Origin: Atractiella rhizophila
Taxonomy: Eukaryota
NCBI GenBank assembly: GCA_021432655.1
Contig: MU271638.1
Span: 1-36,656 of the forward strand
DNA: 36,656 nucleotides
Direction: 5' to 3'
Of this stretch, positions 1 through 35,002 are shown piece after piece. The notes beneath the pieces are model-generated. The model worked only from the letters and a program-made list of their open reading frames with translations. It made no database searches and was not told the origin of the DNA. Each line of letters opens with the position of its first letter. Position 1 is the stretch's first letter. A program made the translations under genes and the position numbers.

Positions 1-95
1 ACCCTAACCCTAACCCTAACCCTAACCCTAACCCTAACCCTAACCCTAACCCTAACCCTAACCCTAACCCTAACCCTAACCCTAACCCTAACCCT
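1..95. repeat. Telomeric repeat (CCCTAA)n, C-rich strand: left chromosome end
   Basis: Uninterrupted CCCTAA hexamers from base 1 to 95 (~16 units), then an abrupt switch to unique sequence. Confidence 0.99.
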
Positions 96-367
96 TGGGC
101 GACGGGTCTGCTGCAAAAATTGTCGGACGGGACTGTGCAAAGCCCTGCTCTCTTGATTTAAACAGGGCTGTGTGAAGGTCAATCCTTTTATATTGACAGG
201 ATTGACAGGACGTTGACTTCTGTTACTTCGTTCATTGCTGGTGCATTTGGAATTTGGAGCGAATTTACGCTTGACTTCACTTTCGCATTCTTCCTCCTAC
301 AAGTTAGCTTTAAAGCTCGACCTGGAAAAGTTCCTTTCCAGCTAGGGTTCGCCTCAAAGTTGCAACC

Positions 368-2462
368 ATGCCGAGGTCTTCCTTTTGCGCTATTTATCAG
401 AAGGTTATGTATGATGATCACTTTCATTGGCCTATCTATAATCCTCTGTACGTAGAAGACAACCGTACTGCAGTGAGGACAAACATTTCCCACTCGCCGA
501 CAACAGAAATGATACCTCTGTCCAATAACCAATTCTTTCACTTCAGCGTTGCAGCACCTGTTCCGTCAATTCAGGCTGAGTCCGCACAATGCCCTACCGT
601 TTTTTCGAAGGCACGGTCGACGTCCACAGACCGATGGTGTCTCGTATCCGCCACATGAAATCATGGTCTCCATGGACGATCCTTCGACGACGACACTCGA
701 CATCACTTCCTCCCCAAGGGTTAGGGTTCCCACCTTCCGAAGGAGAGGCTATGGTGGTGAATGGAGGGTTGGGGATTTTGGATATTGCACCGAGCTTGGT
801 ACCTTCAGCTTTTCGCAAAACGTGCAGGACTTTTTAGGGCCAGAAGACGAAAGGCTGGATTTTCCTTTGAGAGAGGTCGCGTTGAATGCAGAATCTCCGA
901 TTGCCAAAGGAAGCTTCACTGTCACGAGCGCTGCGGTGGATGCAGGCCCTCCAGTGTAGGTCCTCGCTTCGGCGCTTCAAGAGGATATTATTTAATGGAC
1001 GAGCGTAGCCCAGGCGGCGCTACTTTTGCGGTCAATTACTCCAGCCAATCCCAAGGAGGAGCCCTTCTTGCCACAACATCAGATGCTCTTCGATTTGCCG
1101 TCACTCACCAAGGTATCGGTGTTGACTACTTCAAACGGTATTTCAAAACAGTGTTGGAAGAAGATGCACGAGCCGGGCACTGTCCGAATGGTAAGAGGGA
1201 ACTCTGTATGATCATCGGCGTTGTCAAAACCTTCGGTTGGCTTCGAGCTGTATTCGGTCAATGCGGTGGTAGCTTTGGAATCAACGTTGGGGCGCACCCA
1301 GCCGGATTCCAAGTGGGTCGTGATTACGGTGCGATTTCAGGAGTCCACGTGCAACATGGCCCCAGGGTGCAACGTATGTTCACAGTGATGATCAGAACTT
1401 TATTAATGGCAATGATTATTAGGAAGCGGCGTCCTTGGTAGCGACGTGGGGGACCAGACACTATTTATCACTCGAATTATGTGTAAACATGCGGGAATTA
1501 CACAACTTGGTTGTCTCAAAGGAGGAGGGGAGTCAGGTTGGCCTTCCCCCGCAGATCCAGCAGATGAAAGCATGGAATCCGTCTTTTGTGATGGATCAAA
1601 TGAAACTGTGATATGCTCTCACTCTGCTGCTATCAAGCAGCATTAACTTGTTGTAGGGGTGCGACCCTTTGAGCGTGCTCCTTGAGGCTATGTTGACTGT
1701 GAGTATTCCGTATGTTCAAAAAAGATTCCTCATTCCTCTGAAGTTACGCCCTGCTGCCGAATTTGCTATTGCGTCTGACATCGACTTGTGCACCCTGTGC
1801 GAAAAGGTGCGTTGCTCCACGTCCAAGCAGGTCTCTATTTAAGCTGGCTAGTCGAATTGGAGCCTCAAATCTGGCGAATGGAATGTTCAAAAAGCGGTAA
1901 AACTGTTACAAGGTTGTGGGGACTGCATCAATGAAGAAGCTGTCGGTACATATCAGTCTCTCTTTGGACATCGAACTCACTTTGTCTGATAGGACTCACT
2001 CTCCGCTTCTCCACTCATTCTTCGGAGTCCGTTCTTGAAGGAATTGATCTACAAACTGTGACACACGAAGGAGGCAACCACCTGCCGATATCGTTCACAA
2101 ATGTGAAGCAGCCCGACGATGCGGAGGAGCCTTCTGTCGTTGGTGAATACGGGGACAATCAGGGAATGACCGAAGGCGGCGCCGCCCTCTCATTCGCAGG
2201 GGACTGTGAGGACAATGCCTTCTTGTCTACTGTCGTATTGGGAGGAAGACATGATAAGGCCAGCATGCCGAGAGACACACCTCAATTTCATGGAGACAGC
2301 CAGCTTCTGGAGTCGGAAAATGAGTCGATTCGATTGCACGAGTTGCCTACAGCGTCAGATATCGGAGATGACCTGTTGGTAAGTCCACTTCATTCTCTCA
2401 TTTTCCTGCATTTGCTAATATATCTCAAGCAATCTTCGCTGCTCCTGAAATTCTTGATGTAG
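368..2462 (+). CDS. Fungal gasdermin-like protein (RCD-1/HET-Q1-related), spliced, ~490 aa
   Basis: Exon model: 368-447, 725-955 (acceptor uncertain: 574, 724 or 742), 1009-1373, 1423-1607, 1657-1698, 1744-1806, 1852-1945, 1993-2378, 2430-2462. GT-AG introns of 45-53 nt (except the first) keep the frame; total 1479 nt. Motifs in order: IYQKVMYDDHFHWPIYNP; WRVGDFGYCTELGTFSFSQNV; TFAVNYSSQSQGGALLAT; LCMIIGVVKTFGW; HGP; DQTLFITRI; DPLSVLLEAML; AEFAIASDIDL. These resemble the basidiomycete gasdermin-like pattern as I recall it (GYPLW.P / IGDVG / GA.L / LVTG.DKT..W / NQC.F.RG / DPL..LL.Y / AI.HD.D). Confidence 0.78.
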
Positions 2463-3074
2463 CTTAACGGTCAGAAAACTGGAATTCAGGTGATGAAATA
2501 AAGCTTACAAGCACACGTTCTTGCTATTACGTGTTTATCTTCCTCTCAGCGTGACAAGTCATGCCGTTTCGTGATGCCGCAAACAGTCTCATCAAGCAAA
2601 AAGTCTCGATAGAGAATGAATAGTTCACTCTGCCTGGGGAGAACTCAAGTGCATACATCCATCCCGACCTATTAGTGCCATGCACATACAGCAGTCACCC
2701 CCGGTCCAAACCTGGATGAGCACGAGATTCAAGTTGATGCGGAAGGAATTGACATTTCCTGGTTCAGAGGGAATGCACAGGATCCCTTGAAAGATGGGCA
2801 GAGGGTCATATTGATGCACGGGGTTAACTCCTTGGGATCGGGGTTCTTCACCTGAAGGTAAGTCATCCACCTCACTCCTTTTTGATACATTCCTCTTGAA
2901 TAATTTATTTCTTACTGGTACCAAAGGTGAAATATTGTTGCTGCTTAACCAGTGGCCTGTGAACACGCATATATCTATTCATGGCTTCGCTTCTCCTATA
3001 CCCTATGAGGGACCACATCTGCAAACAGCGATGTTCTTATTTCTCGTGTGATGAAGAAGTTGCTAATCACGATG

Positions 3075-3935
3075 TTACTGAAAGACTTCCCACAGCGCTT
3101 TAATTCACGCTAATTACGTCCCAATTACGTGAGGAATCGAGGGAGATACAATGAGCATTGCTATTTCGCATACAATGGTGTCCTCGCACTCCGCTTTGTT
3201 AAATGTTAATCTAATGTTGAAGTCCTCAGTACTACCTGAAAGCCCTCTTTGAGCGCTTTAATGAGCGATGTTTGCATCTAGATTGTGTTAGAAACTAATG
3301 AGGCTATGATAAACATTGATATATCATTTTAGTGATGCTGAGTTTTCGCGCTCCGCTTTTTTTTGATATCTCTCTGATATTTACGTGCTTAGTACACCAT
3401 GAAAGGTCTCTTCCATTGCTTCAATCCACACTATTTACGTCCAGGTTACGGCGGGAATTGATGAAGATATCATAAACATTGTTCGCCTTAATCAAGACGA
3501 GTTTTCGCACTCCGCTTTTCTTAATGTTTGTCTAATACTGACGTGCTTAGTACTGCCTGAAAGCCCTCTCCAAACAATTTAATTCGCGCCATTTATGATA
3601 GGGTTTGATGAAGATATGATAAACATTAATATATTTCATATCGAGAGGTGAGCGTTCGCACTCCGCTTTTTCAGTGTTTATCTAATGTTGATATGCTTAG
3701 TACGCCATGAAACACATGGCCCAGCGTTTTAATTCACGCTATTTACGTGTGGATTGTGACCGGAGCTGAATGAGATACGAGGAACATCAATATTTCACAT
3801 AGGTCAAAGTGAGCTTTCGCTCTCCGCGTTTTTATTGATGTCTATCTAATGTTGATGTACTTAGTGTGCCTTGAACGACAACCCCCAGAGCTTCCATTCC
3901 CACTATTTATGTTGAGATGACGATAATAATTGATG
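3075..3935. repeat. Degenerate AT-rich tandem array, ~5.5 units of 151-162 bp (subtelomeric satellite)
   Basis: Core TCGC(A/G/T)CTCCGC with its CGC at 3185, 3347, 3506, 3657 and 3818. Each is followed by TCTAATGTTGA-like, TGCTTAGTAC-like, TGAAA and TTAATTCACGCTA-like blocks. A partial unit starts at ~3075. Confidence 0.9.
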
Positions 3936-4245
3936 AAGTTGTTTGTTTGTTTGTTGTCGGAGAGGAACGCTTCTTGCAGGAGAAAGCGCTCGAAAGTTTA
4001 TGCGATGCAAAATACACGTCAACTCAACTATTCGTTAGGACTCTCAGTAAATCCAATTCACCTGAACCGTACTCAAGGCTGGAAAGTCTAAAACATCGTC
4101 GCAGTCATGAATTTGGGCATGTTCGCATGCAATACCCAAATGACGCATGAGATAGGCTATTTCTTCCATTTCTGTAACAAATATAGAGCCGTTGCGACAC
4201 ACTAGCAAATCCCTCCGACCTCGTTTAAGGTGAGCAAACCCTCAC

Positions 4246-4873
4246 TTAGTTGCCTGGCTCTCCCTCTGTCAATTTAATGCCTCCCACACTTCTCCCTCCT
4301 TTGCGTCTTCCCCAAAAAGCACTCGCAAGGGTTCCGCCGACCTTGAGCGCCTTATCCCTCTCGTTCCCACGACCGCCATTTTGGTTGGGCACAATACCCA
4401 GCAGACGCTTCGCTTTGGAAGGCACCGGACGCCCGCTAGTCGGCAACTCGTCGTCGTGATCTGAGGTTTCTGAAGCTTCGGAGTCTTCGTCTTCCGCTTG
4501 TGCTAAAGGCTCGGATGGAGCGGTGGGGAGACGAATGCGGGAGGTGTTGAACGAGAAAGAGAGGGAAGGGAGGCGAGGGGACAGGCGACGGAAGGAGATG
4601 AATAGGATGCAGATGACGGAAATAGTGACGAGGGGACTGGATGTCCAACAAAAGAAAGAAATGAGCTGAATAGTAGTAGGAGGATGGAAGAATGCGCACA
4701 TCCAAATCCAGCCTGGGATGGTGGACTCAGGAGTTGCTACGGATTGACGGAAACCGTATCCTATTAAACCTTGGATTTCCAGCAGGTGGACACTCACAGG
4801 TCTCCGGTTCTCCCTCTTCCAAACTACCAACACCGCTAGCTAAGTAAGACTTCGTCAACTGGACGACAGGCAT
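4246..4873 (-). CDS. Hypothetical single-pass membrane protein
   Basis: 3-exon model gives MPVVQLTKSYLASGVGSLEEGEPETSTPESTIPGWIWIPLVTISVICILFISFRRLSPRL..., i.e. a hydrophobic helix followed by RR, then an acidic and basic disordered tail. Donors GTGAGT and GTGCGC. Confidence 0.6.
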
Positions 4874-5479
4874 TGTTATTCGGTATCTCACACCTCAGTC
4901 TCTCAGAGTGAGGCAAGAGTTGTGTCTGTAGCTGTCGGCGAATGCCTGAAGGGGCAATCGGATCCAGAACCACAGCGCAGCCACCAAGTTCGTTCACGAC
5001 CCCGTTCACGACCTTTCAACCATTCCCAAGGCTCTCACATCGTCTGAACGACCCTCCCTGGCCTCGGAGTAATACCTTTGCTAGGCTTTGAGAGTCTCTT
5101 CAGTTTCAGCGACCAAGATTACCTCGAGCCGTGCGTGCATCTCCTCCTTCACGTGTCTGTAGCTTTCCCATTTTTCACTCTTCCTTGCCTGTGAGCGACG
5201 ATAAAGAGCAAGTGAAGGAAACTTGAGACAATGTCGATGCCGTGAAATGTGGGTGCCGCCCCAATGTTGCAACATTTCCGGTTCCATTTAGCTGTGCAGG
5301 GCACCGCGAAGACGTTCTCCTTCCGGTATTTCGAGCTCACAAATATTTGAGGCGCTTTCAAGAAGCCGAATTAGAAGTTTCAATGCATCCATTTTCCGTC
5401 TTCAAGAGCATCAGTTCATTGAATGTGCCACTAACGTTCCTACGTTGCTACTAGTAAAGCGTCCTAATCTCATGTCAAC

Positions 5480-7605
5480 ATGTCGTCTTCTTCCTCCTCC
5501 ACCACTCCGTCACATCGACTGTCCAAACGAGCACTCCAAGGCTCCGGCCTCGCGGTAGTCATCGGAATCGTCGTCTTCATAATCGGCCTCGCTGTCGTCG
5601 TTGGTCTCGCTCTCTTCCTCCGTCGACGGCATGCTCGTAACAGCAAGGGGACTGCGAGAGGGAACCGTGCTGGATTCACCCGGATAAGTCACCAAGGGGA
5701 ACGGAGTCAGACTGCGTCACAGATATCGTCGCGGCCAACGAGCATGGCTGGAGAAGGAAGCTATGATTCCGCAGCGGAGGAGGTACCATTAGTGCAAAGG
5801 CAGGAGGGAAATAGTGCTGGGAGTTTGAATGCGAGGTTGTCAGCGAATGGTGGAGATTTCAGCATGAATGCGTCGAGGACGAGTTTCAGTCAAGAGGGGT
5901 ATGACGAGTTTGGAGCGCAGCAACCATATCAGCCTTACCGGATGGAACTTTGTCAGCCCTATTTTTCCCTTCCTTCCTTACTCTTACTTTGATAGCTGAC
6001 GTCTCCATAGCGCCTAATGGAGAATGGACACGAGTGCCTGCGAACACTTCGAACGATATTCCCACGCCGAACGGCCTCCAGCGGAATCCCATTGGGGCTT
6101 CATACGTTGCCTCCGTCCCTCGCTCCTCTCAAGGTGCTTCGTACCAACAATCCTCACCCCACCTCTCGAACGCCCAATACACCACAGGAGACTATTCAGC
6201 AGTTCAGTCTCCAGGATCTCAACCAGCTTCAGCCCGGGCAGAGGTGGAATATTACGTTCCCAGCAAGGGAGGGTATGTGGTCGATCCGATTACCGGGATG
6301 GGAAGGTCCCAACAAGCGTCCACTGCTCAGCCAGGTCAGGGGAATATGGAGGATATGTGGGAAAATATAAGGGCAGACGTGATGAACACAGCTGTCTCAA
6401 GTTCAAATCCGAATGCTCCTCTTAACGTCAACAGTTACGATCAATCACCTCAAACCGGGCACATCCGCAACCCAAGCGCCTCCTCACTCAATCCTCCCAT
6501 CACCTCGGCTCCCAGTGGCCTAACAGTCGTCCATCGTTCTCCTGGTCCAGAGGGATCATCATCCCAGGTTCAGAGTTCCAACCAATCGAACATCATATAC
6601 GGCGCTCCCCCCGCTTCGTACGCGCTTGTCAATCAACCTTCTGCCTTCATTCCTGCCCCGCAACAAGCCATTCCAGTCACGTATCAGCAGCATTCCATCC
6701 CTCAGTACTCAGCTTCAATGTACCCCGCTTCCCCCGTTTACGGTGGAGGTATAAGCAGCGGATATGGAGCTGTTCCGCCCTCTCGCGAAGCCATCATTAC
6801 TGGCTACGTCCCGTCTCAGCCTCCTCAGCAGCAGCAACTACCACAATTCCAATCTCCTCCTCCTCCATTTCAACAACAACAACCTACCCCGGCCCCAATC
6901 CAGCAGCAAGAGGTCTTCACTACTCTTCCCCAGCAAGGCTTTGCTCCGCCTCAACGTGGGAGCACACCGCAAGTGCAACTCAACACATCTAATATGCCGC
7001 AACCCGTGAATCCTCCGACCGCAGCTCCATTCACCTCATCTTCCGAGAGCTCAATGTTTAGCGGAGAGACGTCAGGTTCGCCGGATACGGAACCGACGAC
7101 TGGTGGAAGCCCAGATCAAGTGAACGAAGATCGTTTCTGGCGTCCGGATCGCGTCGTAGCCGCGAAAACTCCGGGAGGAGCGAAGAGGCGCCATCTCGTA
7201 GGACAACAAGTCGACAAAGACGGAATCCCCATTAATCCTCCTTCGGCCGCTCCGCGTTCTGCGGCGCCAACTCTTACTCCTGGGAGTAACAATCCCTTCG
7301 CATCTCCATCTATCCCCGAAGTTCCACCAGTTCCGCCCCTTCCTCCAGTTCCATCAATTCCCGCTGAGTACAGCAACCTCAAGACCGTCACTCCCCCACC
7401 TCCTCCAGTTACTCCAACACATCCGAGCAACCGAGCGTTCTTCCAGACTGGCTACCCAGCGGAAAAGGAGAGCGCAGAGCAATTCTACGCCGCCCCTCCG
7501 CCTCCACTTCCAGTCGTAGGAGGATCACATCCTCCGGAGCGACGAGGGAGCACGGACAAGGTTGGAGGGTTCTTCGCTTACGTTCCCCCTGATGGAGCGA
7601 GTTGA
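5480..7605 (+). CDS. Single-pass membrane protein with long Pro/Gln/Ser-rich cytoplasmic tail
   Basis: TM helix LAVVIGIVVFIIGLAVVVGLALFL followed by RRRH. Intron 5952-6010 (GTCAGC...CTGAC...ATAG) joins the 5480 ORF in frame to the 551-aa ORF. Confidence 0.8.
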
Positions 7606-7884
7606 GGACGTGGGTCATTGAAGTTTATTTAACGACAAAATGCACATAGTAAAGTTTTGCGTCATGATCTTGCTATCATGAGGAAGTTGACGAGAGATCG
7701 ACGGATTAATGATGGACTGTTTTTTGTTTCCCTCGTGTTTGGTGCATCTTTAATGTTTGCTATTACCCCGCTCGATCTTTTGTTCCGCACGAAAATGCTT
7801 TCCAAGTGTCGAGTTTGTAATGACAGACGATGCTTATTATTGGAACTGATCGTTCTACGATTGTGGCATGAGAGTGCAAGGGCT

Positions 7885-8874
7885 TCAATCGAACACGCTC
7901 AATCCCCGAATGAGCTGATCAACCTGACTCCTGAAGAAATCATTATCCACTCCCCTCTCTCCCTTCTCCTTCATGCTCGTCTTCTTCCACGTCTTCTCTC
8001 GTTTCCGCCTTTGCTCCTCAGTCTCTCCTTCCGGCCCTTGGGGTAACTCAAATCGTTGACGATTGTAGAGATGAGTGAGTGGATTGCGGACTACAAACTC
8101 CAGAAAACAGTTGGAGTAGAGTTGGCGGAGGACAAGGCTGAAGAAGATTTGGGGTTCTGATGACTGTCATAGAAGAAAACCAAGGACGAACCGTAGCGAA
8201 TCCACGCTCGGGGAGGATGTCAGGATAAAGGTGTAGCAAGTGGGAGTGTGTAACATGTGCAGCTTATACGAAGGCGTTTGATATGCGAGATACGGCTCTG
8301 ATCTGTTTACTCATGTCAAGCTGAGGCAAATCTAAGCAGGAGGGCAATCCAACGCACTTTCCACCATTGAGCTTCTTGATCATGGTCCTCAGCGAGAATA
8401 CCACTCCGTAGATCAGTTTACATTCCTCATCGAACCCCATCCCCTTCCCCGTTCCCTCCTCCACCGCTTGTTCCTTCTCTCCGGCTGCTGCCCATCCACC
8501 CCTAAGATCGAACACGGTCTGTCCTGGTTGGGGTGTCGGCGCGCCTCTAGCCACGAGAGTCCCACCGACACCAGAAAACCTCTCTGTAGGCGGTTTGTCG
8601 AGCTTTGAAGTTGATGCGCGTGTTTCAGTGGGCAGGAGGGGTGAAACTATGCGTGAAACGGATGGGAGGACTTCAGGTCCTGGTTGTGCCGGAGACGGGT
8701 TGGGAGATGGATGCCTAGGTTTCGGTAAGAGATGCGATTGACAAATAGGAGTATAGGGAAGCACCAGTTTTGATAATAGACGCTGCAGCCAGATCAGTGA
8801 ATGTTGCACAGTAGTGAGGGAGACACTGACCATGTGCAGGAAGGCGAAAAGAGGTAAAACGAGTAAATAGTCAT
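7885..8874 (-). CDS. BET5: TRAPP complex subunit Bet5/TRAPPC1 (sybindin-like longin fold), spliced
   Basis: MTIYSFYLF...CVYYQNW; EECKLIYGVVFSLRTMIKKL; YQTPSYKLHMLHTPTCYTF; VLRQLYSNCFLEFVVRNPL; GVDNDFFRSQVDQLIRGL. Confidence 0.9.
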
Positions 8875-9744
8875 GTCCTGCTGCAAATTATCGGTCACCT
8901 CAGGGTCAGCGTCACGGTGAGTTCCATGCCTCAGGGCATAACTCACAAGTTCAGTTCAGTTGGCAGGTTATCACAAAGCTTGTACTAGGTATACCCGATC
9001 GGCGAGTATTTGCCTCGGAACTACATATTCGCCTGCTCACCTGCTCACCTGCTCACTGTTTTTTTGTGCTGCAGTGCCAGTAATATGTCAGCCTTCCGAT
9101 TCATTGCAGGTATCGTTGATTACTGTCAGACACAAAATATCGTTTGAGGTTGCTGAGGATATGAGAACGAGAATGAAATCTCACCACCTGCAGAAGCAAG
9201 CAGAATCATTAAGGGTTCGCAACAACTGGTTCCAGTCAATATAATGAGGATTCGTCGGTTAAATCACAGTTTACATCATTTCTGCTTGCAGTATGTAACT
9301 GATGCGATACAGAGAGAAGTACTTTGGCCAAAAAAGTCATATTCACCGACCTCTGTGCCGATACTTTGTGGTGGCACTTTCTGTATTCCAAGGAATCATA
9401 CCTTGTCCCGAGAGTTGCTTTCGGGTAATTGATATCTCCTTTCCCCTTTCCACGCTGCCAAAAAGTGACAAACTACTCTTTGTTTGTAAACCTCCAGTTT
9501 TTTGTAACGACAGTGACTAACTGGCATCAACAGCCCCCCAAAGCAGTTGTTTATCCCTGAGACGTTAGGCGGCATAGAAGAAGCGCACGCCAAAGTTGTG
9601 TGGCAGAGAAGCCATCGGAAAGAGGGGCAAGCACGCGGACAGCTGTCGCGGCACAATGTAAAAACTTCCTCTAATAAGAGGGATAGGGCCTTTCTCGTCA
9701 AAGAGTCCACCACCCCTTCGATAATTAAGATTCATCTGTGAGAG

Positions 9745-12086
9745 ATGAATGAAGGGAACATGTACGATAAACGTTACTCCTTTGCATCCGAGCGCACGGT
9801 TCTTGAGAAGGATGGTACAGAAGGCCTTCAAACGCCGGAACAACATGGGGAGTCCAACTTGTCGGCTGGTAAAGATATCGAAGGAAGGGAGTATGGGCAG
9901 GACGATTGGGAGAGTGACCCCGCAAATGCGAGAAACTGGTCAGCAAAAAAGAAATGGACAGCTGTTTCAGTCGTCAGTCCTTCCCGCTCTTCACTTTGCT
10001 GCGCAAAGGCTCACGCAATTGTAGGTATCTCTGTACTGCTTGGTCAGTCCACTGGCAAGTAGTACGATGGCTCCAGGTATACGTTGCCGGATAGCAGCTT
10101 GAAGTGCTGACTGGTATTTCCAGGCTTGCCAGAAATTGCAGTCAAATACGCCATTTCGAGCAAAACAACCATCGCGCTCACTCTCTGCGTGTTCCTTCTC
10201 TCATTTGGAATTGGGGTCGGTATCGACTCCTCCATTTATTTCCTTCCTCACAGATGCTTAGCCCTTGTGCTTTGTCCGCTATCGGGTGCCTTCTGTTCCT
10301 GCTCTCAGCATGATTTGCTCAGATATCTCCTCCTTTAGAAATGTACGGTAGAACTTGGGTCCTCCACATCAGCAACCTCGCTTTTCTAGGGTTCAATCTA
10401 GGTTGTGCATGGGCACCCACTACCTCCTCACTGATCGGCCTCCGTTTCTTGGGTTCGTAGTTATGCTTATAATGACAACATTTGCTCAGTAACTCAATAG
10501 CTGGTCTTGCCGGATCAGCACCCGTTGCCATTGGGGGAGGAAGTATTGGTGATCTCTTCTCGGAACGCAATCGCGCTTCTGCGATGGCAATATTCACGTA
10601 CGCTGCTTCAATCAACATTAGAAAACTCAAGAAAGCTGATTAGGTTGGGCCCTTTGCTTGGCCCTGTCATTGGACCGGTTTGTTCTTCTGCAAGTTGAAA
10701 TGCAGCTGTCGCCTTACTCGTGTTCCGGCATAGATTGTTGGAGGGTTTGTAACACAAGAGATTGGTGTCAAATACGTTTTCATAATTGTTTCCTGTTAGT
10801 CCCCCCAGCCTACCTTTCTCGATCCTCCTTACAAAACTTAGCTCTTGCCGCTGTGGCATCCGCTTTCGGAATTCCGACTTTACGAGAGACCTATGCGCCT
10901 ATCATCCGGCTTCGCAGAGCTCGAAAGGAAGGTCCAGAGGCAGTAGCGAAGCTTCATGCCACGTATCCAGAATTTGCGCACCAGAAAGAGAGACCGCTGT
11001 GGACACTTTGGATCAACCTCTCACGACCTGTTATTATTCTTTGCACCAGTGTCGTCTGCTTTCTTCTGAGCTTGTACATGGTGCGTTCTGTCTTCTTTCA
11101 CCTGTTCAACACTACTCTGATAACAGGCATTCATGTTTGGGGTCTATTATCTCATGTTTACAACGTTCGCAAGTGAGTGATGCCCAGCCGATCCGAAGAC
11201 AAAACTTAAGTTGATGGTAACAGGCTTTTTCGCGGAAACATACGGTTTCAAAGCTGGAGTGGGAGGTCTCACATATTTGGGACTAGGAGTTGGGTTCTTT
11301 TCGGCTGCGATATTTGGTTCAAAAACAGCGGACCAGATTTATAATAAGGCGAGTTATTTCTTCATCCTCAGGCGATGATCATAATGCTGAGAGGTGCTGG
11401 AAAGCTCGCAAGCCGTACGCCTGATGGGAAAGGGAAACCGGAGTTTCGGTTACCAGCTCTGATCTTTGGCTCCCTTTTCGTCCGTGAGTGTGGTGATCCA
11501 GTTTCTGAGGTTTGGTAACTCACAACCTTCAGCAATCGGAATATTGTGCGTTAAGCTGTCTCCTCCATGGCACTTGCTAATAGACCCTAGCTGGTACGGT
11601 TGGTCAGCCGATCAAAAGGCTCACTGGATCTTGCCGATCCTAGGTCAGTACTCCTTGATCTTCTTCGTTAAGATACATAATGAACCGACCTAACTAGGCA
11701 CTGCTGTGTTCGCGTTTGGAATGATGTCGACTTTGTAACAAAACCATTTTCTTCCTATTGCGAAATGGACTGATAATTACTTCAGTCTTCCAATCCAGCT
11801 CTACCTCGTCGACACCTTTAAATTTGCAGCTTCCGCTACCGCCGCTGCATCACTCTTGAGGTCTCTGTTAGGTTTTGCCTTTCCCCTTTTCTCATCACAA
11901 ATGTTCGATGAGCTCGGTATTGGCGGTGGAAACTCTTTACTCGCTGGCAAGTTCATTACTTCATGGTAGAGGACCATAGTTGATAAGGACCAACAAGGCC
12001 TTGCTATCGTATTAGGAATTCCTTTTCCGATTGGGCTATACTACTATGGCGAGAGATGGCGAGCAAAAAATAAAAGAGACGACTGA
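9745..12086 (+). CDS. MFS transporter, DHA1 (12-TMS drug:H+ antiporter) family, many short introns
   Basis: WESDPANARNWSAKKKW; SEMYGR; GLAGSAPVAIGGGSIGDLF; GPLLGPVIGP; RETYAPIIRLRRA; GKPEFRLP; WYGWSADQKAHWILP; LYLVDTFKFAASATAAASLLRSLLGFAFPLF. Confidence 0.93.
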
Positions 12087-12606
12087 GGCTGATAGGATAT
12101 GTGCCGGTGCAGATTTGGTGCAGATTTTATGCTAATTTTCAGAAGTAACAGTGATCGAAACCAATTGTTTTGGTTGTGTTTGAAAGTTATAGACAAGAAC
12201 GGCACAGAATCACAGACGCATCATCTCTATCAAATTGAAAATGGAGAAAAGGGCCGCTGGAAACCGGAGCGTTTCTTTCATGATTGTGGGAAAGTCTAAG
12301 TGAAGCTTGAATGTTGTTATCGCGCCGCGAACTATCTGCCCAAGGCAAGACTATTGATCTGCCCAGGTAGTTATTGTAACCAGGACTGTCCAGTTCTCTG
12401 GCTGGATTACGTTGAGTAATGAGGGCAACGTAGAACTGATGTCCAGGCTTCATTCCCGTACAAATTTCACAATATTTACCGCAGCTCTGTGCAGTTGGAG
12501 TCTGTTCAGATTGGGAAAGAATCACATTCACATCGAAACTGATTAACTGTATAGCTAAGATGCAAAACAACATGCCGAGTCACGATGGCAAAGAGCTGGG
12601 CAGGAA

Positions 12607-13344
12607 TTAGTAGGACATTGGTGCTTGCGGCGCGGGAGGCTGTTGCAATCGGAAAAATGTAAGTGCTCGATCAAAGTCAAAGGGAGAATGTGGCAGCGTA
12701 CAGCATCGTGAACGACATTGGCGCGTGCCTGTTCCTCGAGTCGGATTTGATGAGACTCTTGCGACAACTCGCAAGGCGAGCAGCAACATGCTGTAAGACA
12801 GTCTGCGATAGTGCTACCCTTGATCCCATAGCGGGTTCTGTAGTCTCCTCTGGCAATGAACTGCAAGCATAAACCGTTAACGCGATCTCCGCCGAAGAGT
12901 ATGCCAAGGTGACTAGTACGAACCTGAAGAATCCAGCCAGCTCCAACAACACAAGTCAAGGCACAATGGAGCACACCGTCTTGCCCGCAGCCTTCGCCTC
13001 CTTGAGGATGAGGTACGCCAGTATCCCTCAGTGCTTTGAAACGCGATTGATTCCTTCCCTACAATGTTATGAGCGAGCTGACCCATCCCAGTCAAACGAA
13101 AAGAACTCGCATATTCTGTTAGAACGAAGACATCAACTCAGAGTCCTAGTGGCGGAATGGGCAACTTACGAATGCACGGACACCAACATGCCACACAGAA
13201 CTCCTTCAAGCCACATCCACAAAGTCCTTGATCCCAATCCTTGTCTTGTGTTCCCTGATGGGGATAATCAGGAGGAGGGACACCGGCTTCAGCAGCCTTG
13301 TTCATGGACATGGGGTCTTGAGGAGGGTAAGTTGTGTTCTCCAT
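12607..13344 (-). CDS. PLAC8 family cysteine-rich membrane protein, spliced
   Basis: DWDQGLCGC; FCVACWCPCI; RGDYRTRYGIKGSTIADCLTACCCSPCELSQESHQI is the PLAC8 signature. Confidence 0.92.
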
Positions 13345-14083
13345 AGGTGAGTCGAGGGCTTGTTTTGCAGCAAAAGCGACGCTGGGAAGTGGTCGTTAAT
13401 ACGATGAGATTCGAGGGAAAAGCTTGGACGGTTTTTTATACTTGGCCGCCGCGGGTCCAGCTGGCGGGCAGAGTGGGAATCTAACGTACATAAGTGTGCA
13501 CCAGAGGGAAGGGAAGCGGCACGGAAGCGCTTGGGCTGTGTAAGTGGAAAACAAAGACCATTCCCGTTTGACAACTTTGGAAGACGCATCTCACCCACCC
13601 CGACCAGACTCTTGCCTGAGGCTTGTGACGTACATCACGACTTGGCTCAGGGTTAGCATCCGAGGGACACCTTGGAGACCTCTCTTCTCTCACAAAACGA
13701 ACGGAAGGCAAAAAGCGAGGTACATCGCTCCTTCGGAGTTCAAGTTAGTATCGAAATTTCGGAGCGACGTAACACACAGCGAATTTCACAACGCATTGAA
13801 CATCAAGCCTCTTGATGTGATGGCCTAGTGCGAGAGAACGTTTGAAGTAAAGCTTTCATGCTTCTAGCAGGCAATGCTCTCAACGTTGAGTAAGTGAGAA
13901 ACGCATGAACACAACAGTGTTACTGGCGGAAGGAAAGAAAATCAGGTGAAACTTGCTTCCAACTACACGACACCCATATTGGACAGCAACTCGAAAAGCC
14001 TTCATAATTGGCAATCTAAAACTAATAAACGAAAGGCAATCAGCACCTTTCAGTCCCTCCTCCGATTCATTCCAAGAGCCCGC

Positions 14084-25068: not shown

Positions 25069-26333
25069 GGATCACTAGAGAGTACCTCTTGTTGATGTCA
25101 AGCGCGCCATAGTGACTGCATCAACTATCTTCAACCTGCTTGTTGGGTTCCTATTGTGACCAACAACCAGACCACTTCTTATCTATGATACAGGATGGTG
25201 ACTGAAGGAGTGGAAGGAAACTAGGAAGCTCAGTGTATAAAGCTTGGACGCAAAAATTGTAACCGATTGAAAGCGACAAAGGTCAGTACTGCTTCCACAA
25301 TTCGGACCCTTTGAGTCGTCTTTGAGTTTTATTCTTTGTGCATCAAATAATTCATCCACAAGTCTCTGCTGGCGGCCTCAAACACATTTCCTTCACACGC
25401 AACCCTTGGCATAGCGATGTGACATGAATACTGCATCCAAGAGGGAGAGAGCCGAGTTGCAATACTCCACCTAGATCATAACAGTTCCATAATGCACAAA
25501 CCTGATGTACTACCCCTTAATGACATTGACATTATATGGACAAAAGTCGCTTTGCAGTGGCAGTCAGGAGAACACAATGCCTCCAGAGCATTCGTGGCTT
25601 ATACAGAAGTATGGCTGCCAATCAGATAAAAAACAGCATACAGTGGACCTCTTCATCGCAAAATAAGTTGTCACGGGACTTTTCTTGCCAAATCATTGAA
25701 ATATTCACTTTCCATCCATGCTTCTATCTCTAAACTCATTCTATGACATTACATTAGTCATCACGTTTCTGACCATGTTTCAGTGCTACCGCAGCCTCTA
25801 GAATCAAGAGCGTTTGTTTTGGCAGAATTCGTCAGAAGCTGAACCTCAGACTTTTCAAGTCCTCGTGACCCTATGTTATCTTCATTTCTGCGACTTCGCA
25901 TTGGTCTGGATCGAAATCTGGAACCTAACCTGAACGATAAACTTGCCCTATCGCTTACTTTACTGCTAACTTTACTGCGGTCGTAGCGGGGTGACGCTCC
26001 TCACAGCAAAAGGAGATGATCGAAGAGGTTTGCCGCTTTATTACTACCTTTCCCTTTAAATAACTTGATCGTCTTCCTTCTCTGATCTCCTAGGATCCTT
26101 GAGTCCAGTGTGCTTCAGGTTTCTATCCTCCCACTTTTCCTACTGCTCCTCCGTTTTCTTAACATCGAGTCCACACATAATGTCTACCGCTCTCGAGTTT
26201 TTCCGCTGGGATCTACTATTCGCAAACGCGGGTATCGTCTAGATTTAATTTGAAGTTCCGAGGTCTCCCATCTAGTTCCGCCCTAACCCTCATCCAGCAC
26301 AGACGCTGTTGTGAATACCAGCGCACCAAAAAA

Positions 26334-27023
26334 ATGTCCATCCCCCGTCCAAAGAACTATCCTTCCAACCTCCGCTTTCACCCGACCCCTCTCCCTTCAA
26401 ATCGAGTCTCGCTCTCCCTTTTGTACATGTCAACATACTGTACCCCGCTCCCTCCTTCCTCCGTCATCCCTACCGCGTCGTTAGTATCCATTCTCCCCAT
26501 CGATTCTCCCTCCCACCCTGCAAACGGCCAACGCGGTCTCTTCGCCCGCCGGAAACTAGAAAAAGGGACACAGATAGTTGATTACAGCGGTGTTGTACAT
26601 TTAGAAGCGGAAAGCGACCCAGCAAGCGAATACGACATTTGTATCGATTCCTTTTTCGTTCCCGTGTCAATGGCATCCGGCTCCAGACCGCAATCTGAAG
26701 GAGAGGATAGTAGCGAGGAGATAGGTGAAGTTGAAGGGACATGGGAGCGCATCTCCATCGACGCTCAGAACGGCGGAAATGAGGCGAGATTTGTGAACGA
26801 CTATCGGGGTGTTCCTGGAGTTGAGAGACCGAATTGCGAGTTTCGAATTCGGGAAGTGGATGCGGATAATGCGAACCACGGGACGATGGGTAAGATGAAG
26901 AGGATGTGTGTAGTTGTTTGTAAGAAAGAAGGGATCAAGAAAGGAGAAGAATTGCTCGTCAGTTATGGGAAGGGATTTTGGAGAGGAAGATTGGGGGAAC
27001 AAAAAGCGCCAGATGATGTCTGA
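26334..27023 (+). CDS. Small SET-domain protein (putative lysine methyltransferase), intronless
   Basis: GQRGLFARRKL; IVDYSGVV; IDAQNGGNEARFVNDYRGV; PNCEF; IKKGEELLVSYGKGFW. Confidence 0.92.
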   Translation: MSIPRPKNYPSNLRFHPTPLPSNRVSLSLLYMSTYCTPLPPSSVIPTASLVSILPIDSPSHPANGQRGLFARRKLEKGTQIVDYSGVVHLEAESDPASEYDICIDSFFVPVSMASGSRPQSEGEDSSEEIGEVEGTWERISIDAQNGGNEARFVNDYRGVPGVERPNCEFRIREVDADNANHGTMGKMKRMCVVVCKKEGIKKGEELLVSYGKGFWRGRLGEQKAPDDV

Positions 27024-31382: not shown

Positions 31383-32611
31383 ATGGCAGCGGCAAAGGTG
31401 CGTCTCTCTTCCTTATGGACATATCTCGGCGGTGTGTTGATTAGTCTCTTTTCGGCGTCGTTGCTGCACCATTCTGGATTCGTCCGGACCTACAGGCAGC
31501 GCAGTTTCTGAGGGAGTACAAACTCGTCGTTGTTGGAGGTGGAGGTGTGGGAAAGAGCGCTCTCACCATTCAATTCATTCAGTCTCATTTTGTGGATGAG
31601 TATGACCCGACCATCGAAGGTACGCTGTTTCTCTGCTTTGCATTCTTCATAGCGCATGTTGGGAACGAAACAGAAAAAGAGCCAGGGAAAAAAATTGACC
31701 GGTTTGATGCGCTGACGGTCATGACCGGTCATTTTCATTCCATGTTTCTCAATAGGAATGAACTGCTTTTACGTTCTTGTTCTCCCTCCCTGGAGACCTC
31801 GGCAGCCTCGTTTGCCCTGAGGGCTTCTGTCCTCACGCAGCAACTAATCTGCATCCCCGCACAGATTCCTACCGCAAGCAATGCGTGATCGACGAAGAAG
31901 TCGCTCTTCTGGATGTTCTTGACACCGCTGGACAAGAGGAGTATTCGTGCGTTTCCTTCTTCCTTCCCTTCCCTTGCACGGTGCTGAGTAGTGTTGGTGG
32001 GCAGGGCAATGAGGGAGCAGTACATGCGAACGGGAGAAGGATTTCTCTTGGTGTACTCTATCACTTCGAGATCTTCGTTCGACGAGATTGGGATCTTCCA
32101 TCAACAAATCCTCCGTGTCAAGGTTCGCATTCATCTTTATGACACTTACCGTCCGGTAGTGATGGTTCGACTTGGTCTAGGACAAGGACTACTTCCCCGT
32201 CATTGTTGTGGCGAACAAATGTGATCTGGAGTTCGAACGCCAGGTTGGCGCGCACGGTGCGTCCTTCCGTACCACTTACTGTAGCTACTTGTGAATACTC
32301 AAGTTGGACGAACGAAACAGAGGGTCGTGAACTCGCAAAACACTTTGGCTGCCGATTCATCGAGACCTCGGCCAAGCAACGTATCAACGTCGACGAGGCG
32401 TTCGGGAACCTGGTTCGGGAGATCAGAAAGTATAACAAGGTGAGCTTTACCCGCTTTCGATATGCGGGTGGGCCATTTCATTGAAATGGTATCTGCGTGA
32501 CAGGAGCAGCAAACTGGACGACCCGCTGGTGGCCAACAGGCCGGGGGACAGCAGGCATTCAAAGAGGATGGAGAGAAGCACGGAGGGGGATGCTGTTGCG
32601 TTCTGCTCTAA
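31383..32611 (+). CDS. ras1: Ras1 small GTPase, spliced
   Basis: [63 protein letters not shown]-terminal CCCVLL CAAX box. Confidence 0.97.
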
Positions 32612-33637: not shown

Positions 33638-35002
33638 ATGCCTCATCAGATGAACGGGAGGTCCAATCGTGGTGGGCTGTCGAAGAGGAATTCGACCGGT
33701 GGTTTGCGTGTCGGCAGGAAGAGCGGGCCATCACAAGGCAGCGCTGCGAGCGTGGAAGTGAAGAATAGAAGGGGAAGAGGGGTGACCGTCAGCTCGAGCA
33801 TTGTCGACGTGAAGCTGTCGCTAGAAGAGCTCAACCAGTTCGCACTTTCCCTATGTTTCGCTTAAGATGATTCTCATCTTTTCCACCATCAGGCAGTTGT
33901 CTTCCCTCTCGCTCGTAGACGTCCATCCCCAGCGTCAATCACCTCTGCTTCGACTACCGCCTGAACTCCTACCGCTCATCCTCACACACCTGTCCTCATC
34001 CTTTCTCGTCCCCCTCCTCCCTGTTTGTCGATACCTCCATCCCATCGCTCGTCACGCCCTCCTCTCTCGAGTCTCCGTCCGCTCCTCCAACAGGTTCACC
34101 TCCTTCTCTTCCATCTTATCCCGTTGCGCCGATCCCGATCGGAAGGGATTCACAGTCCAAAGTCTCACGCTTGACCCGTCTGCTTTTCGGGAACGTCCCA
34201 GCAACGAAGAGATCAATCGTCTCCTTCGCTGTGTTCCCAGGTTGCAAGAGCTCGAATACTTCGGTTTCGAACCTGGCAACGTGGCCGTCACTCTCCCGCT
34301 CTCGCTCAGAAAATTAACCCTAGGATCCAGGAGAGGGATGATGTTTTCGCTCCCTAACTGCTTCTCGAACCTTCGTCTCTTGCGGCTTTTGAGGGTGCTG
34401 TCGTTACAAGGCCTAGACATCGGCGCAGAGGAGATACAACACAGTGCTTTGACTGACCTTCGGTCGCTTAAACTGTATGGATGCAATGGCTCAGTTCTAG
34501 CGTGGAAGACGCTCCTGTTCCCCCTCTCTCCTTTCGGGGGAAATCCGAAATGCACCTCCAATCTCTGTCGGTATCCCACGACCGCCTCCCGTGCCCAGAG
34601 GGAGAAGAATGGATCCAACTCCTCTGTTCGAGCGCCAAGATCAGCGCACTCGAGCTCTGGCGGACCATTTTCTGCCCTATGGACATCTATTTCAAGAACG
34701 TCCAACTTTTCTTCTCCACCTGGGAGAAGAGCAAGAAATCTCCGGAAACTTACCGTCGCGATTGTTCCCCCATTAGAAATCATTCGAGGACTTGGGGTAA
34801 AAGAGCTGTGTGTCAGGAACACAGACGATGTATCCGTCGAGTTAACTGGTTTGCTCGACGGCCTAAAAACAAGGAATTGGACGTGCTCGCTGTGTGGAGG
34901 AAAGGTTTGAGTTTAGAAGGCGAGCAGAACGTGGAGGAGATGGCTAAACGAAAAGAAGTGAGGGTTGTCGACGCTCTTACTGAATGGAGGTGGGAGTCTT
35001 AG
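33638..35002 (+). CDS. F-box / LRR-like protein, apparently frameshifted (pseudogene or consensus errors)
   Basis: F-box LLRLPPELLPLILTHL...LLPVCRYLHPIA and LRR-like LQELEY, LRKLTL, LRSLKL. An intron at ~33838-33892 joins the upstream ATG exon. The 3' part alternates between two frames. Confidence 0.75.

Follow-up and report, generated by a model that had tools for sequence, protein, structure and literature searches.

A subtelomeric gene of Atractiella rhizophila, its orphan paralog family and a possible distant relation to gasdermins

The gene reported here lies at the telomeric end of contig MU271638.1 of the basidiomycete Atractiella rhizophila, and the closest described systems are the fungal gasdermins HET-Q1 (Podospora anserina) and RCD-1 (Neurospora crassa), the bacterial gasdermins (bGSDM, PF26164) and the animal gasdermins (PF04598). 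HET-Q1 and RCD-1 belong to multi-copy, fast-diverging fungal gene families. In the accessible parts of three reports, fungal gasdermins are described as clearly more abundant in, or present particularly within, Ascomycota (PMC10197012, PMC10989679, PMC12881547); the available text of two of them (PMC10197012, PMC12881547) agrees with the remark, made in an initial annotation of this DNA, that the studied fungal cases are ascomycete. HET-Q1-like members carry an inhibitory peptide of 38 to 43 residues, according to the accessible portion of PMC13475620, and two conserved blocks of about 10 residues are common to RCD-1, bacterial homologs and animal gasdermins, according to that of PMC7414189. 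The available sections of PMC8851545 report a protease-domain gene within 10 kb for 80% of 1,884 het-Q1 homologs in ascomycetes, and the part at hand of its Dataset S3, a sequence-based census, gives a gasdermin count of 0 in 27/27 Basidiomycota rows. In the accessible parts of the full-text literature on gasdermin in Basidiomycota, no description of a basidiomycete gasdermin was found.

The window, i.e. the whole stretch of DNA analysed, is 36,656 nucleotides (nt) long (assembly GCA_021432655.1, positions 1 to 36,656 of the contig, forward strand). For positions 368-2462 the initial annotation had proposed a cryptic, divergent gasdermin-like cell-death gene. The gene is real, and the observation behind that proposal is essentially right: it is a subtelomeric gene of 8 or 9 exons and one member of a family of paralogs. 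The assignment to gasdermins has been neither established nor disproved and is the best surviving lead; the probability that the conserved module of the family is a very divergent gasdermin-like pore-forming unit is put at about one in two.

A comparison with HET-Q1 and RCD-1, drawn from descriptions and family profiles, shows likenesses and differences. The gene likewise belongs to a multi-copy, fast-diverging family, the proposed N-terminal part has about the size of theirs, a short C-terminal segment comes after it in place of the large repressor domain of animal gasdermins, no N-terminal hydrophobic signal is evident by reading, and a location next to the telomere would be apt for genes of allorecognition or immunity. 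On the other hand, the host is a basidiomycete and sequence similarity is not detectable by Pfam and PDB profile tests. An extra N-terminal motif set apart by a variable linker, a longer helical segment of about 60 amino acids (aa) and copy-specific tails of up to about 400 aa are further points of difference. Finally, most het-Q1 homologs have a protease gene nearby, as said above, whereas no S8/CHAT protease gene was found here within about 11 kb.

The gene and its surroundings are made up of the following elements, where ORF stands for open reading frame, UTR for untranslated region, and X2, X4 and X5 are sequencing runs discussed below:

1..95, no strand: telomere repeat, 15.8 copies of ACCCTA, found by repeat match; marker of the chromosome end
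96..367, + strand: presumed promoter and 5' UTR, separating the repeat from the first ATG; an X4 contig starts at 347
368..655, + strand: upstream ORF with the N-terminal family motif (WPIYNP at 428-445), in another frame; from paralogs, tblastn and the X4 contig
663..955, + strand: exon 1 of the deposited model, with the GEWRVGDFGY block; ATG at 663; an X2 contig (742-955) ends at the exon border, a weak hint
1009..1373, + strand: exon 2, core of the conserved N-terminal module, with GGALLAT, YFK, MIIGVVKTFGW and a glycine-rich alternating stretch; from the mapped deposit
1423..1607, + strand: exon 3, with the DQTLFITR block followed by a variable linker of Gly, Pro, Ser and acidic residues (about 1488-1607); from the mapped deposit and the alignment
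1657..1698, + strand: exon 4 (small), with the predicted DPLSVLLEAML helix; from the mapped deposit and the AlphaFold model
1744..1806, + strand: exon 5 (small), with the predicted AIASDIDL...LCEK helix; from the mapped deposit and an X5 contig
1852..1945, + strand: exon 6, last conserved predicted helix of the module (W..QKAVKLLQ); the X5 contig bridges both flanking junctions
1993..2378, + strand: exon 7, weakly conserved acidic tail; from the mapped deposit, the X5 contig and the alignment
2430..2462, + strand: exon 8, with the stop codon TAG at 2460-2462; from the mapped deposit and the X5 contig
2463..2580, + strand: 3' UTR, extending at least to 2580, where the spliced X5 contig ends

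The eight exons between 663 and 2462 give, once spliced, a translation equal letter for letter to a deposited protein of 486 aa ('hypothetical protein BT69DRAFT_1355560 [Atractiella rhizophila]', hereafter P0001), which a word-index search had matched at 100% identity to the longest exon (query 1007-1375). All seven introns are of the GT-AG type and measure 53, 49, 49, 45, 45, 47 and 51 nt; G+C content is 0.518 in exons vs 0.413 in introns. The seven introns of 45-53 nt and the product of about 490 aa of the initial annotation thus match the deposited model, while the word "cryptic" was misplaced, the gene being already annotated in public as a hypothetical protein. The chain of GT-AG introns is by itself weak evidence, because an unconstrained search yields many open paths through the region; the model is accepted because of the deposit, the conservation of paralogs across the junctions and the RNA-type contig described next.

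RNA-type evidence was collected by comparing contigs of four of the five runs listed (X1, X2, X4 and X5), where stretches without contig cover carry no information. A contig of 696 nt from run X5 spans 1744-2580 and skips exactly 1807-1851, 1946-1992 and 2379-2429; a transcript-type molecule thus lacks three of the seven introns. The gene is therefore expressed, and its 3' half is transcribed and spliced. The co-splicing of the exons, as proposed initially, is in this way confirmed for three of the seven junctions. Run X4 has a contig covering 347-520. The contig ends at 520 (X4), 955 (X2) and 1744 (X5) match proposed exon borders; with one run behind each, they are weak hints. A contig of run X1 (1600-1844) crosses two introns unspliced and hence stems from DNA or pre-mRNA.

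Rhizosphere and soil metatranscriptome runs contain contigs nearly identical to the window, with one difference each (G>A at 1753 in X1, G>C at 465 in X4); A. rhizophila or a close strain seems to be present in these samples. Run X5 also contains a contig of 1159 nt which matches the window only at 753-788, where GEWRxGDFGY is encoded, with 3 differences, and is unlike it on both sides. This is most simply a paralog transcript, in which case other members of the family are expressed too.

The family was collected by a HMMER search with the 123-aa exon against 1.84 billion representative proteins, which returned 10 proteins at E<=0.001. Six of these were accepted as members (P0001, P0002, P0004, P0005, P0007 and P0009). 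The other four were rejected as chance matches to long repeat proteins, with 7-11 matched stretches each: P0006 and P0008 were inspected, P0010 and P0011 were judged from their 9 and 7 stretches and their lengths of 1679 and 4151 aa. The family as used here consists of P0001-P0005, P0007 and P0009 (n=7). All named members (P0001-P0004 and P0007) come from A. rhizophila; P0001 matches P0002-P0004 with E-values from 1.7e-93 to 7.7e-76. A profile search of a set of 5.8 billion proteins returned only the query's own first sequence, and two metagenome pattern scans gave 552 and 596 matching places, among which no relative was confirmed.

The five A. rhizophila paralogs are 28-52% identical and share 52 invariant columns, which fall in blocks matching the motifs listed in the initial annotation. 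The ordered blocks of the family are Y..MYD..HWPIYNP, GEWRxGDFGY, SQSxxAxLxT, YFK, CMIxGxxK, GxQTLxxSRI, DPLxVLLxAML and IASDxD. All of them are present in the product encoded by the window, provided that the upstream ORF, which holds the first one, is included. Of the seven motifs originally assigned to the product, RVGDFGY, GGALLAT, MIIGVVKTFGW, DQTLFITR, DPLSVLL and AIASDIDL are indeed found there, in that order and on columns invariant among the five paralogs, while WPIYNP belongs to the separate upstream ORF. The conserved module covers about 320-345 aa and ends near residue 345 of P0001 in the alignment. Within it, a variable Gly/Pro/Ser-rich linker (about residues 240-283 of P0001) precedes a conserved segment of about 60 aa with three to four predicted helices; the part of the linker encoded in exon 3 (about 1488-1607) is missing from the paralog P0007. 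The tails that follow the module differ from copy to copy: acidic in P0001, where exons 7 and 8 encode 138 aa with a net charge of -17, almost absent in P0004, and of other sequence in P0002, P0003 and P0007. On the strength of these alignments, the proteins form a small orphan family with a clear block structure.

A weak Ribonuclease-III-like similarity was detected in one member (Pfam E 2.6e-4), and the long tail common to P0002 and P0005 matches no Pfam family.

The support for a relation to gasdermins comes solely from the ESM Atlas, which was queried with residues 1-320 of P0001 and 1-340 of P0007, two paralogs at 28-30% identity. In the feature search, each query has unnamed Basidiomycota clusters as all of its best 30 neighbours (0.96). 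The nearest cluster bearing a Pfam family is, for both queries, PF26164 Bact_GSDM (carried by 11% of its members), at 0.85 and 0.86, and the second nearest is PF04598 Gasdermin, at 0.82. In the structure search, run with the Atlas model of P0007 against 7.7 million clusters, four gasdermin clusters are among the nine rows listed: a Gasdermin D cluster, with template modeling (TM) scores of 0.37/0.26 (by query/by row), a pejvakin cluster (0.39/0.37) and two bGSDM clusters (0.38/0.47 and 0.37/0.44). The rows also include two Basidiomycota clusters with TM 0.74 and 0.73 by query over 295-311 residues, an unnamed 261-aa bacterial cluster without family (0.53/0.67) and a TamB cluster (0.34/0.40). 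The structure alignments run from residues 3-9 to residues 305-336, i.e. over the whole module. Taken as a lead, this language-model result is consistent with a gasdermin-like module.

The first structure row is an 801-aa Basidiomycota protein with WD40 repeats, of which 280 residues outside the WD40 part align to the model with TM 0.68 by query. At the level of predicted models, this points to an occurrence of the module in fusion with a repeat sensor as well.

Under a gasdermin-like reading, the fold, the formation of pores, the autoinhibition and the trigger may be pictured as follows. The region from the GDFGY block through the DQTLFISRI block would be a mostly beta N-terminal pore-forming part, and the variable linker would lead to the short conserved helical segment, which may keep this part inactive. 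If the helical segment were removed or displaced, whether through a protease from another locus or through some other trigger, the N-terminal part would be freed; it could then form oligomers in the membrane and bring about cell death, for example in non-self recognition or defence. What acts as the trigger may depend on the tails specific to each copy. The blocks CMIIGVVK and DQTLFISRI may correspond to the two blocks of about 10 residues of gasdermins. The strongest beta-amphipathic window of the protein is the glycine-rich SFGINVGAH stretch, which stands at the 99th percentile of shuffled sequences.

Several results weigh against this interpretation. Among sequence tests, the Pfam model PF04598 gave no match at E<=10 in 7/7 members or in exon pieces, the PADLOC models gave none in 7/7 members, NCBIfam returned nothing relevant for the family, and PDB sequence profiles gave 0 matches at E<=10. 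A family profile (A4) run over 401 Bacteroidota genomes gave two matches (E 0.0019 and 0.028 per genome), no more than chance would produce over 401 genomes. No significant match to the gasdermin profiles covered (PF04598, PADLOC models, PDB sequence profiles) was thus obtained, and beta-amphipathic windows are barely enriched overall (7% vs 5% expected). As to structure, AlphaFold2 models built from 7 sequences each are unusable, with a predicted local distance difference test (pLDDT) of 35.0 for P0001 (alignment A3) and 32.9 for P0007 (A2) and hardly any residue above 60; the only segment above 50 in both runs (residues 281-340 and 261-320, respectively) consists of three to four helices with values of 52-72. 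Foldseek comparison of the P0007 AlphaFold2 model to the PDB gave nothing at E<=0.001, and no gasdermin was among the rows listed, which are unrelated proteins at E>=0.64, the query being the model with pLDDT 32.9. The Atlas scores of 0.82-0.86 lie below the 0.9 bar of the tool, and a first match at or above 0.8 is reached by 1/3 of shuffled proteins; the Atlas model of P0007 is poor (pLDDT 0.44) and all TM values to named gasdermin clusters are below 0.5. Moreover, the two Atlas searches count as one source, since they rest on one language model and on related queries.

The same holds for the genomic setting. An S8/CHAT protease domain was found at E<=0.01 in 0/107 stop-to-stop ORFs of at least 55 aa in 2463-13744 (about 11 kb), a scan which short exons of an intron-rich protease gene could escape and which covers one side only, the telomere being on the other; neither did Pfam detect a protease in the larger ORFs of the whole window. 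A two-gene cluster of the het-Q1/het-Q2 type, with a protease within 10 kb, was therefore not found. In this copy, in addition, the N-terminal motif is out of frame with the main ORF, with 16 candidate joins between the two.

In a separate search, PF04598 run over the 401 Bacteroidota genomes gave two sub-threshold matches within frames of 876 and 1792 aa, which were rejected as gasdermins.

By family, the comparison may be summarised thus. The bacterial gasdermins are the nearest named Atlas neighbours by features, aligned over residues 4-336 of P0007, but all scores are below the bars of the tools, PADLOC models do not match and nothing credible emerged from the Bacteroidota genomes. For the animal gasdermins, the Gasdermin D and pejvakin clusters align over 182-191 residues of the P0007 model, but TM is only 0.26-0.39, the seven members do not match PF04598 and there is no Gasdermin_C-like domain. 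The closest relatives by any method are the unnamed Atlas Basidiomycota clusters (286-532 aa, plus the 801-aa form with WD40 repeats), which carry neither a family name nor a function. They were not reached at E<=0.001 by HMMER with the 123-aa exon, and the putative relation is therefore below single-sequence detection. The proposal of a divergent gasdermin found no support in the sequence-profile tests described, and what sustains it are the nearest named Atlas neighbours of two paralogs and the gasdermin rows of the structure search, at scores below the bars.

The most serious competitor is a Basidiomycota family with a beta-rich fold of its own, not a gasdermin, for which the gasdermin neighbours in the Atlas would be an artefact of low-confidence embeddings and models; this is a plausible explanation, although its chances are well short of even. 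It would account for the uniformly negative sequence-profile tests and for the unnamed Basidiomycota clusters standing, at 0.96, far above the named ones (0.82-0.86), and it agrees with TM values below 0.5 to named gasdermins, similar to those of the TamB cluster (0.34/0.40), and with the lack of a protease neighbour in 2463-13744. It fits less well that, for two paralogs as distant as 28-30% identity, the nearest named clusters belong to one and the same pair of gasdermin families, and that these families occupy four of the nine structure rows listed out of 7.7 million clusters. Besides, the accessible parts of the literature describe microbial gasdermins in a way that agrees with the layout seen here (module, linker, short helical segment, variable tail).

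A further explanation, concerning this copy whatever its fold, is that it is a decaying paralog, with its N-terminal motif put out of frame by a true frameshift, which makes an N-terminally truncated protein from ATG 663 or a 96-aa peptide and is perhaps non-functional. It is considered unlikely, and it concerns the region upstream of the deposited start. The ORF opened by ATG 368 is absent from the deposited model, stops at 656-658 and is in a frame different from that of the main ORF. P0002, P0003 and P0004 start with the WPIYNP motif in the alignment, and a tblastn comparison of residues 4-38 of P0002 with 374-478 gave 22/35 identical residues (E 5e-14); the ORF belongs to the gene because of this homology to the N-termini of paralogs. 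Since it lies outside the 486-aa model, a start at 368, seven introns and a product of about 490 aa, as given in the initial annotation, are mutually incompatible. Given that all longer paralogs carry the WPIYNP motif and that X4 has a contig over 347-520, the deposited model is too short at its N-terminus: the public annotation, which starts at ATG 663, is probably truncated, and a conserved N-terminal exon would have to be added.

How this exon would be joined bears directly on decay. The ORF carrying the motif stops 5 nt before ATG 663, in the other frame. Similarity to paralogs runs in frame +2 at 374-478, and more weakly to 637, and resumes in frame +3 from 657, so that there is little room for a normal intron. 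Sixteen GT-AG candidates join the ORF to the main frame and keep it open, but 0/16 combine a strong donor with a size of 45-53 nt. Intron 520-574 (55 nt, weak donor) would give a product of 566 aa and intron 473-554 (82 nt, better donor) one of 557 aa, while 465-546 and 565-610 are further candidates; exon 1 would then start upstream of 663, e.g. at 575 or 555, and the exonic part of ORF 368-655 would reach only about 464-564, depending on the donor. The X4 contig reads past 473 and ends where the spliced and unspliced forms of 520-574 would diverge, a weak hint to the latter intron, which keeps the frame open. Against decay it also counts that the remaining 486 codons are uninterrupted, that splicing is correct in a transcript-type contig, and that the region between motif and core varies in length and sequence among paralogs, so that weak similarity there proves little. 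A resemblance to P0002 seen by eye in frame +3, at about 531-580, was dropped after tblastn failed to recover it.

That the exon chain is a chance product of GT-AG borders, with no gene behind it, is practically excluded, since the many open paths of the unconstrained search are outweighed by the identity with the deposited protein, the peptide conserved across junctions in five paralogs, the three introns skipped exactly by the 696-nt contig and the difference in G+C content between exons and introns.

Returning to the gasdermin-like reading, a bolder extension, which can be put forward tentatively, is that sequence searches miss a gasdermin clade spread across Basidiomycota and equal to the unnamed Atlas clusters, and that this gene is its first member to be recognised. 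Such a hidden clade, if true, would explain the zero counts in the 27 Basidiomycota rows of the census. It would also provide basidiomycetes with a pyroptosis-like executioner under its own regulation, having no adjacent protease, a longer helical brake and copy-specific, sensor-like C-terminal tails, with direct fusion to a repeat sensor in some species. A gasdermin-like module would in any case reveal a hidden basidiomycete family of pore-forming death executioners, candidate machinery for somatic incompatibility and defence in Basidiomycota, and its confirmation would be of real interest for the biology of cell death in these fungi. Should the module not be a gasdermin, the analysis still corrects a public gene model which lacks a conserved N-terminal exon, and still delineates, at a chromosome end, an orphan family whose block structure is clear.

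The location of the gene at the chromosome end conforms to the initial annotation. The species, a root-associated fungus of the Pucciniomycotina, class Atractiellomycetes, is the basidiomycete that had been suspected. Perfect copies of ACCCTA (100% matches; TTAGGG type on the other strand) open the window, which therefore begins at a chromosome end. Only 272 nt (96-367) separate the repeat from the first ATG of the gene, at 368, and nothing lies between them; the gene is the last on the chromosome and subtelomeric.

Elsewhere in the window, Pfam matches were obtained for the following pieces:

12558-13058, - strand: PLAC8 (E 1.7e-11)
26181-27020, + strand: SET (E 5.9e-13)
31445-31885, + strand: Ras (E 1.1e-9)
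33825-34907, + strand: weak F-box-like match (0.003)

Weak MFS pieces were also detected, and the large ORF at 5905-7602 (566 aa), as most other ORFs, matches no family. Just 3' of the gene, at 3079-3912, a degenerate tandem array is found, in which a unit of about 150-165 bp recurs five or six times with 60-80% identity. The array was overlooked by Tandem Repeats Finder, is visible as the direct-repeat families D1-D5 and resembles a satellite-like block of the subtelomere.

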